This document shows positions 2,761 to 53,234 of a DNA stretch of 64,000 bases, one piece after another. The notes below the pieces were generated by a model. The model searched no databases and was not told where the DNA came from. It was given only the letters and a program-made list of their open reading frames with translations. Location of the stretch: NCBI GenBank assembly GCA_964016885.1, contig OZ024741.1, positions 326,740,001 to 326,804,000 of the forward strand, read 5' to 3'. This stretch comes from Eledone cirrhosa. Taxonomy: Eukaryota. Position 1 is the first letter of the stretch. Each line of letters begins with the position of its first letter. The translations under genes were made by a program, and so were the position numbers.

Positions 2761-5232
2761 ATTGCTTCTTTTGGGGGACTTCAATGCACATCTCAGTAAG
2801 GAGGGCAGTGAAGATCCTTGCTTGTACTTCCATAACAACACCACCCGAAATGAAAGACTACTGAGAGACTCCCTGCTGGAGGCGAACTTGATTGCGACCA
2901 ACCTAAGGTTTAGGAAGAATCCGGGGAAGATGTGGACCTACATCTCAGATATGCACCTGCCCAAGTCCCAGATTGATTTCATTCTGGTGAGGAAAAAGTG
3001 GCAGAATAGTGTTCTGAACACAGAACCATACAACTATTTCAGTACACTGGGTAGTGAACACCGGCTTATTATGAGTGAGATCCGGGTGAGCTTAAGAAAG
3101 AGCAAGGCTCAGCCTCGGAGAGCAATCTATGACTGGGGAGCTTTCAAGAAAGATGATAAGCTACAGGAGAGGTTCACAGTGGAAGTGAGGAACAGGTTCA
3201 GCGTCCTGTGTGGAGAGACGGAGGAGAGAGAGATTAGATGGACTGAGGAGAGTGTGACGAGGAGGTACGGGCACTTCACCAATGCAGTGGCGGGAGCAAG
3301 CGAAACCCTGGGGCCGAGGAAAAAGAACAAAAAGAAGCAGGTCAGCTCTGCAAATCCAAAAGTGTGTGCAGCCAGAGAACACATGAAAGCTGCCAAGGAC
3401 TAATACAATGCTGATCCTACGGAGGAGAGGATGGAGGTGATTAGGGAAGAACTCTGTACCGCTTACACTGAGGCCAGAGAGGAGGCACTGATAGAGAAGA
3501 TCAGAAGTGTGGAGAGAGCGGTTGACTGATCTGGATGTAAGGAGAGCTGGATGATCATCAACGAGATCACATGGAGGAAGAGAAGGTGTTCAAGTCAAAT
3601 CTAGGGAACAGGGCCCGAGGATAGGAAGAGGAAATGGCTAGACCATTTTAGAACCCTACTAGGAGAACCACCCTCCACAGCCCAGAGAACTGGGGAGATC
3701 AGGCGTCTGTTTGAGGAACTGGATATTGAGACAGAGCCCTTCAGCAGAGAGGAGCTTCAGAGAACGAAGAAGAGGATCAAGGAGGGCAAGGCTCATGGAG
3801 AAGATGGAGTGTCATCAGAGGTGATGAAGAGGTGTGATTTTGATGATATCATCCTGGGGTTCTGCAACCAGGCACTGGAGAAAGGAGTTGCCCCGAATCA
3901 GTGGAGGATCAGTAAATCGTCCCAGTGCCAAAGAAGGGAGATCTCTCTAACATCAACAACTACAGGGAGATCTCACTGACGTCACTTGTAGCAAAGACCC
4001 TCAACAGGATGGTTCTTAACAGGATCCAGCCAGAGATGGAGAAGAAGCTCAGGCACAACCAGAACGGTTTCAGAGAGGGAAGATCAACCACCCGTCACAT
4101 CCTGATGTTGAGGAGGATATTAGAGGGAGCTAGAGCAAAGTGCCTTCCTGCGATCATGGTTTTCATTGACTTTAGGAAGGCCTTTGATTTTCTGGACCGT
4201 CACTGCTTGATGAAGATCTTACAGGCTTATGGAATCCCCAAGAAGATAGTGGACCTGATATCACTGCTCTAGACAAGCACCAAAGCCCAAGTCATTACAC
4301 CTTTGAGATAGTGGCTGGAGTGCTCCAGGGAGATACATTGGCTCCCTACCTTTTTATCATCGTAGTGGACTATTGTATGCGCCTTGCACTGGTGAAACAC
4401 CAGGACTCTGGCTTTACTGTAGCACCGGTTCAGAGCAGGAGAGTTACGGCGAAAAAGGTATCAGATGCTGAATTTGCCGACGACATATTTTTGGTGACAA
4501 ATACAGTGAAGGAGGCAGAGGATTTGATGCAGGAGATTGAGACTGTGTCTATGAGTGTGGGGCTGAGAATGAATGAGACTAAAACAAAATATCTGATAGA
4601 GAATGTTGAGAAGCCAGAGGAGATCACTAATGTAGGCGGGTAACCGCTAGAATTGGTTCAGGACTTCCTGTATTTGGGAGCAAAGATTGGGAATACGGAA
4701 GATGATGTGGTTGAGAGGAAGAGAAAAGCCTGGGCGACGTGCCACAGCTTGATATCGATGTGGAAGTCGGACCTTCGTAAAGACCTGATAATACGCCTCT
4801 TCATTGCTGTAGTGGAGTCTGTGCTCCTGTACTGGTCTGAGACTTGGACACTGACCAAGAAACTCACTCAGATGGTGGATAGGTGCTACACGAGAATCTT
4901 GAGGATGGCTCTGAACATTAATCAGTATACACTGAGGTTGAAAAACTCAGAGCTGTATGGGAGCCTCCCAAAGGTCAGCTCAAAAGTGACACAGAGGAGA
5001 CTGAGGTTAGCTGGACATGCTCACCGACATCCAGAGTTGACATTGTACTCAGTGCTCCCATGGGAGTGCCTAAATGGACATACTGGAAGGGGAATACCAA
5101 GGTTAACGTATGCTGATGCCCTAAGGACAGACACTGGTCTGTTAGAGATGCAGGACATGGCCGCGATAATGAGGGACAGAGACCGCTGGAGAGAACTCGT
5201 CCATGGATCTCGGGAATTTTACCCGCCCTATA
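2761..5232 (+). mobile_element. 5'-truncated, disrupted RTE-clade LINE (APE endonuclease + RT)
   Basis: ORF pieces contain LLGDFNAH, SQIDFILV, GSEHRLI (APE); NYREISLTS, QNGFREGRSTT, FIDFRKAFD, GVLQGDTLAPYLF, EFADDI (RT); and RRLRLAGH. Stops and frameshifts lie between the pieces. Confidence 0.9.
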
Positions 5233-6197
5233 TCTCTCTCTAGTGTGTTACCTTTTCAACATATTGTATTTTAAAATGCCGTTTTAAAAATTCTCTTAGT
5301 GTTGTCTGAAATGTATAGCCTAACACACGCTGATGAACCTGGGTCATTCCATTTCCGTCAACAACTCACTGGCGAAACAGATCACTTTGGATTTGCACGT
5401 CTGTTATATAGTTATAGAGGTATTTAATTACGCTTTAATTTATATTTTTAATTATCGTGTCTATATTCTGCCTTTCATAGGTTGTAGATTCCATACACTG
5501 GTGGTTTTTCCCTGTTTTCATGACGGCGCACTGTATCTCTCTCTAGTGTGTTACCTTTTCAACATATTGTATTTTAAAGTGCCCATGATTTCACCTCCTT
5601 TGAGCACATTATTTACAGGGAACGGGAAGAGTCTATGGCTCCGTTAATGTATCGTGATATTTTGCTCTTTATAACAGTCTTTCTCCTCTTTCTCTGTTTG
5701 GTTGAGCACACTTCTCTGAGTGGTTTGGGGCTTCCCTTTCTAGCAGCTCGTCCCTCAGAGGCCACTGGTTCACTGCCCTTAAACAAGCTGTGACTTCCCT
5801 CTCCCATGTGGAGTTGGACGGCCTCTTTAAAAATGATTTTAGTGTTGTCTGAAATGTATAGCGTATCACACGCTGATGAACCTGGTTATTCCATTTCCAT
5901 CAACAACTCACTGGCGAAACAGATAACTTTGGATTTGTACGTCTGTTATATAGTTATAGAGATATTTATTTACGCTTTAATTTATATTTTTGATTATCGT
6001 GTCTATATTCTGCGTTTCATAGTTTGTAGATTCCATACACTGGTGGTTTTTCCGTTTTATTGCTGGCGCACTGTATCTCTCTCTAGTGTGTTACCTTTTC
6101 AACATATTGTATTTTAAAGTGCCCAGGATCTCCTCTCCTTTGAGCACATTATTTATAGGGAACGGCGAGAGTCTATGGCTCCGTTAATGTATCGTGA
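5230..6197 (+). repeat. Retrozyme-like family A: ~543 bp tandem non-coding unit with one decayed HHR core per unit
   Basis: CTGATGA at 5330 and 5873 (period 543), each followed by a stem, GGC-GAAA-CAGAT...GTCTG-TT. Ends in (TA)n. Confidence 0.65.
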
Positions 6198-6249
6198 TAT
6201 ATATATATATATATATATATATATATATATATATATATATATATATATA

Positions 6250-52053: not shown

Positions 52054-52561
52054 TTCCTGTGTGAGTGTTGAACAAAAAGGTGACGTGGTTGCCTTAACAC
52101 CGTGCGTCATAAATTCAGGCTGTTCAGTTTGTTTACAAACGAACAAAGCGGGCGCTATAATAAGCGCCGCTAAACTGATGCGTACATATATGTATGTGTA
52201 CCTGTATATACATATATATATATATATATATATATATATATATATATATATATATATATATATATATATATATATATATATATATATATATATATATATA
52301 TATATATATATATATATATATGCATGCTACTGTACGTCTGTATACATATATGTATGTACGTATACATACATACTTACATTTAAGTAAGTGCCGTTCTAAG
52401 AGTGAGAAATGAAATTTCGTTTTGATTTTATTACAACTCATCGTTTTCGGTGCGCCTGACCGATTTAACTCACTCGATATGCAAATTAGGCTGCTCAGCC
52501 GTTAATTTTCATAAGGAAAGTATATACTTTCGAACGTTCAACTATCTGGCAGATGGGTATA

Positions 52562-52602
52562 CGGTGCTGATGATAGCTAACACGCTTGAAACTAGTACAT
52601 CG
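52562..52602 (+). ncRNA. Minimal hammerhead ribozyme, unit 2
   Basis: As 52013 with one helix II change. Confidence 0.85.
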
Positions 52603-53234
52603 TTCCTGTGTCAGTGTTGAACAAAAAGGTGACGTGGTTGCCTTAACACCGTGCGGCATAAATTCAGGCTGTTCAGTTTGTTTACAGACGAACAAAGCGG
52701 GCGCTATAATAAGCGTCCGTTAAACTGATACGTACATATATGTGTGTGTACCTGTATGTATATATATATATATGTATATATATATATATATATATATATA
52801 TATATATATATATATATATATATATATATATATATGGATACTACTGTACGTCTGTATACATATATGTATGTACGTATACATACATACTTACATTTAAGTA
52901 AGTGCCGTACTAAGAGTGAGAAATGAAATTTCGTTTTCATTTTATTACAACTCATATATATATATATACATATATATATATATATATATATATATATATA
53001 TATATATATATATATATATATATATATATATATATATATATATATATATATACACACATATATGTATATATATATACACACACATATAGATAGATATATA
53101 CACATATATATATATATATATATACACACACATATATATATATATATACACACACATATATATATATACACACACACATATATATATATATATATATATA
53201 TATATATATATATATATATATATATATATATATA

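Follow-up and report, generated by a model that had tools for sequence, protein, structure and literature searches.

We report that six non-coding repeat families, here called A to F, found in a 64,000-nucleotide (nt) stretch of the Eledone cirrhosa genome (contig OZ024741.1, positions 326,740,001 to 326,804,000; hereafter the window), are, with little room for doubt, non-autonomous elements driven by Penelope-like elements (PLEs). Their insertions combine fixed, paired 3' ends (a "tail"), variable 5' truncation, head-to-head inversions and a microsatellite target, all marks of the PLE type. We further consider it probable that A-F are non-LTR retrozymes (LTR, long terminal repeat), that is, passengers that are circularised as RNA and copied into (TA)n by a co-resident PLE, and we lean slightly towards a Hydra-type PLE as the helper. 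The window belongs to a 3.0-Gb assembly, has a GC content of 34% and contains many (TA)n tracts.

Window copies were located by self-BLAST and by mapping onto family consensus units, each built from 18-32 near-full-length copies. The consensus units measure 537 (A), 557 (B), 488 (C), 553 (D), 616 (E) and 459 bp (F, with most of an internal TA tract left out), at 32-40% GC. An earlier reading made from the sequence alone (the sequence-only reading) had described six families, and their approximate places and periods are borne out by self-BLAST, by consensus mapping and by the spacing of predicted cut sites: 542 (A), 541 and 555 (B), 486 (C), 553 (D) and 549 nt (F), each cut position being the last base before the cut. 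That reading had also treated 5230-52953 as one system; the six insertions do lie there, as separate insertions among other repeats and not as a single locus. Family A (5229-6200, plus strand) consists of a 47-bp piece (5229-5275) that stops at the shorter of the two 3' sites defined below, followed by 1.71 units (5283-6200) that stop at the longer site and run into (TA)n; its hammerhead cores lie at 5330 and 5873, with predicted cuts after 5397 (in a mutated triplet) and 5939. Family B (11591-13475, plus strand) has a 65-bp inverted arm (11591-11655) and then 3.29 units (11674-13475) that stop at the short site before (TA)n, with predicted cuts after 12202, 12743 and 13298 and tail hairpins at 11841, 12384 and 12924; 2.7 copies of a 13-bp unit at the inversion junction (11641-11675) possibly reflect slippage during joining. 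Families C and D are on the minus strand: C (42874-43684) has 1.67 units of about 488 bp and a tail hairpin at 43360, its core at 43515 going with a predicted cut after 43442 and that at 43029 with one after 42956; D (43809-44865) has 1.92 units of 553 bp and tail hairpins at 44468 and 43918, its core at 44622 going with a predicted cut after 44551 and that at 44069 with one after 43998. Family E (50892-51527, plus strand) is represented in the window by only 1.03 units of 616 bp between two (TA)n tracts, with a core at 51150, a predicted cut after 51275 and a tail hairpin at 51427; tandem copies at other loci have a period of 615-616 bp. Family F (51586-52955, plus strand) has an inverted arm (51586-51926) that stops at the short site and a direct arm (51950-52955) that stops at the long one, with hammerheads at 52018, 52567 and, on the minus strand, 51872, and predicted cuts after 52048, 52597 and 51842 (minus). 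The F unit holds an internal (TA)n of variable length, and spacings at other loci are 470-522 nt.

A purpose-built scanner detects one type I hammerhead per consensus unit, always in sense and never in antisense orientation, in agreement with the single ribozyme per unit claimed earlier. The scanner was loosened after these motifs were known, and dinucleotide shuffles scored under identical rules matched in 0, 2, 0, 0, 1 and 0 of 400 cases for A to F, respectively; a first, strict version detected none of the six families, and no hammerhead is among the Rfam matches listed (150 of 192). The six ribozymes differ in build. Stems I and III of A have 7 bp each, B has a U3-A8 core pair and a stem III of about 70 nt, C and D have a long or branched stem II (branched in the window copies of D) and a short palindromic stem III, E has a U3-G8 core, and F is compact. 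The U3-A8 pair is known from PLE hammerheads of Schistosoma (PMC4209133). Core or cut triplet is damaged in 3 of the 13 window copies, namely A at 5397 (GCA), B at 13298 (first core half) and C at 42956 (GGAA in place of GAAA). The core diverges less from the consensus than the rest of the unit in A (1.5 versus 4.3%), B (0.8 versus 4.0%) and E (0.3 versus 0.7%), and circular folds have z-scores of -2.9 to -10.8 against 20 shuffles per family. A-F transcripts are predicted to cut themselves into unit-length RNAs. The units are non-coding, as had been stated: the longest open reading frame (ORF) starting with ATG on either strand of the circular unit has 25-72 codons. The claim that the families share no obvious sequence holds at the level of BLAST, where no similarity between the A-F consensus units is significant (best E value 0.053), and fails for a short hairpin that A-E have in common.

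Of 166 outer 3' ends of insertions, from 115 non-overlapping loci, 126 run into (TA)n. In every family the 3' ends pile up at two fixed positions, between 77 and 303 nt beyond the cut site, the short and long ones lying at 177-181 and 265 nt (A), 175 and 256 (B), 82 and about 195 (C), 77 and about 195-199 (D), 151 and 252 (E) and 244 and about 300 nt (F); the second site is represented by a single end in E and by two in C. Two internal start sites of this kind are the known "tail" of PLEs (PMC11167929). All 12 A-F ends share at least 2 nt of TA microhomology with the target (range 2-7 nt; background 43%) and 10 of them at least 3 nt (background 21%), and a family-specific simple-repeat tail was looked for at the 3' ends and not seen. 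The 5' ends are scattered: in A-E, 3 of 153 fall within 5 nt of the cut site, where 2.8 are expected. The proposal of the sequence-only reading that (TA)n-targeting PLE machinery mobilises these units is supported by the 3' ends at (TA)n, the scattered 5' ends and the inversions.

Head-to-head inversions occur at 53 of 122 loci (A, 14/27; B, 11/17; C, 4/20; D, 15/21; E, 1/21; F, 8/16) and are rare in the families with one dominant site, E and C. The inversions noted earlier for B and F in the window are both present, and only that of F ends at a fixed site. When both arms end at fixed sites (n = 38), they use different sites in 37 cases and the same site in one (p = 1.4e-10 against 0.5, the maximum under independent choice); the remaining 15 inverted loci, with one end elsewhere or at the locus edge, were set aside, and the site windows had been fixed from the earlier pile-ups of 3' ends. 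Both arms may exceed one unit, as at loci L072 (1.92 and 1.77 units) and L227 (1.57 and 3.32 units).

Genome-wide, the families have 2448 (A), 2660 (B), 2238 (C), 1633 (D), 2114 (E) and 1831 (F) first-look candidates on many contigs; the 38-40 best were scored per family, and the dispersal counts are lower bounds. The copy-number search that had been suggested therefore shows dispersed families and not single-locus duplications. In a density sample of 300 kb from 30 evenly spaced places, A-E had no copies, 5 older loci resembled F, and 12 resembled the coding PLE N described below. By these densities the window is a hot spot, and the five F-like loci suggest that F-like copies number in the tens of thousands. 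Families related to F are seen at L052:874-1297, L105:2159-3484 and L130, with 72-87% identity or more distant, and their hammerhead stems differ by compensating changes.

The dispersed copies lack an LTR layout (primer-binding site and polypurine tract were not searched for), and A-F are not simply the pseudo-LTRs (pLTRs) of coding PLEs, a possibility that the sequence-only reading had itself raised. A comparison of 130 loci with seven PLE protein fragments from the window revealed no ORF in sense orientation directly 5' of an array. PLE fragments match the flanks of 19 of these loci, and by coordinates (TA)n always separates any in-sense 5' neighbour from the array. The two closest PLE fragments, near L090 and L107, were considered as ORF-linked units and ruled out on account of the intervening (TA)n; a small hammerhead family at L107 is hence not demonstrated as coding. 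Among 61 PLE loci, sampled from 10,596 and 63,039 candidates, A-F are present only as adjoining or inserted pieces. A-F may descend from an unsampled PLE or PLE end. An extra segment of about 400 bp in two A copies (L007:2053-2454; L008:2015-3515) was rejected as an ORF remnant, as it has no long open frame and its positions differ; it resembles a later LTR-like insertion into these copies.

A candidate helper, the coding PLE N, resides in the window as a 5'-truncated copy with Hydra-type motifs (20765-24051, plus strand; ORF 21210-22745). N copies stop 20 or 103 nt past their own hammerhead, which in the window has its core at 23865, a predicted cut after 23948 and a tail hairpin at 23974; the inverted arm of this copy (20765-21152) ends at the 20-nt site and the direct arm at the 103-nt site. 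All N inversions resolved by eye (six at first, three more in the 300-kb sample and another three in the window) likewise pair the two sites, with no same-site pair among them. The natural unit has 3531 bp with an open frame of 780 amino acids, in which we read by eye DKT, RWR matching RWK, a CxCX5C linker, CxxC and CxH. The protein has no Pfam match, and part of the members among its Atlas neighbours carry GIY-YIG or RVT_1. Together with a hammerhead of its own (U3-A8) and (TA)n targets, these motifs make N a putative Hydra-type PLE, which is apparently intact; the label "Neptune" was abandoned after comparison with the Hydra-clade motifs in section 11 of PMC8557442. N is very young, all 150 scored matches (of 63,039 first-look candidates) being identical over 135 residues, and forms tandem arrays of 3531-bp units, one with at least five. 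It is also found at L191 (G000:C1:437196000-437205999), and short inverted remnants of its end lie in the window at 2487-2700, 24143-24273 and 37585-37783.

The hairpin that links N to A-E lies 1-9 nt past the short end in all six. Its 4-bp stem reads ACTC/GAGT, GCTC/GAGC or GTTC/GAAC, and its internal loop is two-by-two; F is without this hairpin. Shuffles place one at that position in 0-2 of 500 cases. A widened pattern is found in 6 of 18 other hammerhead families against 0.28 expected, and of 59 motif matches in the 300-kb sample, itself overlapping with those 18 families, 19 lie 60-135 nt upstream of (TA)5, as against 4.8% of random positions. N and D are moreover joined in a chimera (L185:817-3003), in which 2 nt of microhomology connect the ORF and part of the 3' untranslated region (UTR) of N to the final 361 nt of D; it ends at the short D site, with the other arm at the 20-nt site of N, and could be a template switch or a later deletion. 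The helper of A-E is likely a Hydra-type PLE such as N, which would recognise the hairpin that directly follows the first start site, and F likely uses another PLE.

As to the template, tandem units of one locus share 1.7, 1.6, 0.6, 0.8 and 0.5% of non-consensus bases in A to E, respectively, and inverted arms of one locus 1.1, 1.6, 0.8, 0.7 and 0.5%, compared with 0.45, 0.58, 0.25, 0.32 and 0.11% between loci; sharing is thus about 2.3-4.6 times higher within a locus. Each of nine E and three D arrays, picked for length, has private variants present in all its units, and at L227, L229 and L072 such variants span both arms. Arrays of five near-identical E units exist, and the cut site is crossed cleanly, with indels at 5 of 237 crossings (background 3.3%). 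The all-unit variants and the clean crossing fit repeated copying of one ligated circle, which we regard as the probable template. Cut linear monomers were ruled out as template, given that 5' ends do not pile up at the cut site.

In the mechanism that we propose, an array would be transcribed, its hammerheads would cut, and the unit RNA would be ligated to a circle; retrozyme circles have been demonstrated in coral, mussel and axolotl (PMC7229834), and circularisation has been proposed for PLE RNA (PMC4209133). The PLE protein would bind near the hairpin and its endonuclease would nick (TA)n, whereupon the reverse transcriptase would prime within the RNA at either site through the 2-7 nt TA overlap and roll around the circle for some one to five turns. 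Priming of the second DNA strand, where it occurs, would use the remaining site of the same RNA and so create the inversion. The dimer predicted for the anole PLE protein (PMC11167929) would fit such two-strand priming.

Several points weigh against this scheme. Because the loci studied are best-scoring matches, long and young copies are over-represented. The hairpin pattern was drawn up post hoc, once the tails had been seen; in its strict form it occurs in none of the 18 other hammerhead families, and among coding families it is shown in N only; the N-D chimera is a single case, open to the later-deletion account. No coding PLE homologous to A-F appears among the 61 PLE loci, a small sample. 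The hammerhead core has no extra conservation in C (3.0 versus 3.2%) or D (1.8 versus 1.9%), and only one of nine predicted Xenopus retrozymes cleaved in vitro (bioRxiv 10.64898/2026.07.22.740005). Conversion, or a source array that was uniform to begin with, could also account for all-unit variants. Finally, in the in vitro work on the anole PLE (PMC11167929), the element used uncut RNA, ribozyme cleavage was not needed, and the start site showed no strand difference, whereas the arms of A-F inversions nearly always use different sites.

This last work, the only biochemistry on a PLE, favours the most serious rival, in which a PLE copies an uncut, linear, multi-unit transcript of uniform arrays and the hammerhead is simply a retained part of a PLE end: ribozyme mutations had no effect on insertion in vitro, and no anole PLE reads ended at the cut site (PMC11167929). 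Uncut RNA would likewise give 5' ends that do not accumulate at the cut site, and the ordinary conservation of the C and D cores suits it as well. We nevertheless judge it unlikely. Young E arrays each carry their own variants in every unit, the variants specific to one unit are mostly single, and their order is not common to the loci examined. Copying that truncates 5' ends can only shorten arrays, yet arrays of more than five units exist, and all six families, dissimilar as they are, retain one hammerhead per unit that is intact in the consensus, compensated in B by the U3-A8 pair.

Rivals that dispense with PLE-driven copying of multi-unit templates fare worse. The units might be 3' ends of coding PLEs, solo pLTRs that landed one at a time and multiplied on the spot through unequal crossover, as satellites do. 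Such a route is proposed in bioRxiv 10.64898/2026.07.22.740005, in which annotated repeats, almost exclusively PLEs, were matched by 24 of 57 Xenopus families. The order of hammerhead, short end and long end is indeed that of a PLE terminus, and 61 PLE loci are few to search. We consider this route improbable, in view of the missing ORF directly 5' of arrays at the 130 loci, the identical unit junction that recurs genome-wide, the non-integer arrays with scattered 5' ends, and the inversion arms that both exceed one unit at L072 and L227; present-day dependence on local duplication is accordingly disfavoured. Least credible of all, in our estimation, is a different mover, an RTE-type long interspersed element (LINE) or a DNA rolling-circle transposon that would have only the (TA)n hot spots in common with PLEs. 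LINE-like reverse transcriptase fragments and a presumably Helitron-like ORF do occur in the window, and such elements adjoin some loci; against this, the paired internal 3' ends, the head-to-head inversions and the hairpin are all common to the coding PLE N, and the 3' ends have no simple-repeat tail specific to a family.

In comparison with related systems, A-F are best regarded as additional non-LTR retrozymes of a kind and size already known, whose link to PLEs has already been argued in the literature. Like the metazoan retrozymes of PMC7229834, they are non-coding tandem units of less than 45% GC with one type I hammerhead each, for which PLE mobilisation via circular RNA was proposed there too. 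They differ in unit size (470-620 versus 150-450 bp, the latter in keeping with the small monomers cited in the sequence-only reading), in the large stem II and/or stem III insertions of the A-E hammerheads, and in being mostly dispersed insertions of one to five units. The supposition that they form a new, larger size class does not stand, as the vertebrate retrozymes of bioRxiv 10.64898/2026.07.22.740005 range from 51 to 972 bp, with a mean unit of 650 bp in ray-finned fish and at most seven units in most families. The PLE link, common to both sets, was drawn there from pLTR homology and co-occurrence, and is drawn here from insertion anatomy, the shared hairpin and the chimera, with no pLTR homologue at the 61 PLE loci; 3' ends and inversions are not analysed in the parts of that study compared. 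Endonuclease-positive (EN+) PLEs likewise have two internal start sites, partial tandems, 5' inversions and microsatellite targets (PMC11167929, PMC8557442, PMC3846280); the A-F tails are longer (59-122 versus 30-40 bp), and the 2-7 nt of TA microhomology between A-F ends and target is a further difference. N shares with the Hydra clade the RWK (as RWR), DKT, CxCX5C, CxxC and CxH motifs, the hammerhead and the (TA)n targets, its unit of 3531 bp exceeding the size of generally less than 3 kb given for that clade, whose account in section 11 makes no mention of non-autonomous partners (PMC8557442). Chlamys elements of green algae such as MRC1 are also non-coding PLE passengers in multicopy head-to-tail insertions; they differ from A-F in resembling their helper at the 3' end, and most Chlamys elements have no canonical hammerheads (PMC8557442).

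The genome is rich in hammerhead elements ending at (TA)n. At least 18 further families of this kind were seen, in the window at 28397, 32834 (minus), 37307 and 38235 and in the flanks of loci L001-L221; several are two-ended (about 40/136, 52/144, 12-23/91 and 38/165), and one has a period of 700 bp (L053). A second coding PLE of the window (47381-50272, minus strand) has RVT_1 and GIY-YIG and an inverted arm; by eye, its arms stop some 46 bp from each other, and about 630 bp of 3' UTR, holding a degenerate minimal hammerhead, are missing from the direct arm. A near-perfect palindrome of 113 bp (53367-53479) is probably a short inverted PLE end, because similar sequence occurs in a PLE 3' region (L157). 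A repeat of about 190 bp resembling short interspersed elements lies at 11088-11278, 17881-18073, 35913-36314 and 56971-57161, including one tandem pair with a period of 204 bp. Broken LINE-like reverse transcriptase ORFs, helicase and PLE fragments occupy 2642-5243, 14022-17009, 7833-9049 and 19949-20476, and the same mixed set continues at 26396-26895, 38621-40809, 57401-59074 and 62208-63793; we take the helicase fragment to be Helitron-like, and the LINE family labels are our assumption as well.

Which enzyme moves animal retrozymes, and whether it does so through a circle, has so far been argued from co-occurrence and pLTR similarity. In the portions of the retrozyme and PLE literature consulted, we met neither the different-site rule nor the shared hairpin nor a named helper, and supplements, Repbase and Dfam may hold the families themselves. 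We tentatively suggest, as a bolder possibility, that a guild of unrelated circular-RNA parasites shares its hairpin with an exploding Hydra-type PLE, a dimer of which would twin-prime a single circle at two fixed sites flanking the hairpin. If true, this would name the helper behind the mobility of animal retrozymes as well as its cis signal, and would bring PLE tails, partial tandems and inversions under one mechanism. With a young helper candidate, mapped start sites, a mutable hairpin and a near-strict rule linking arms to sites, this genome makes the question directly testable.

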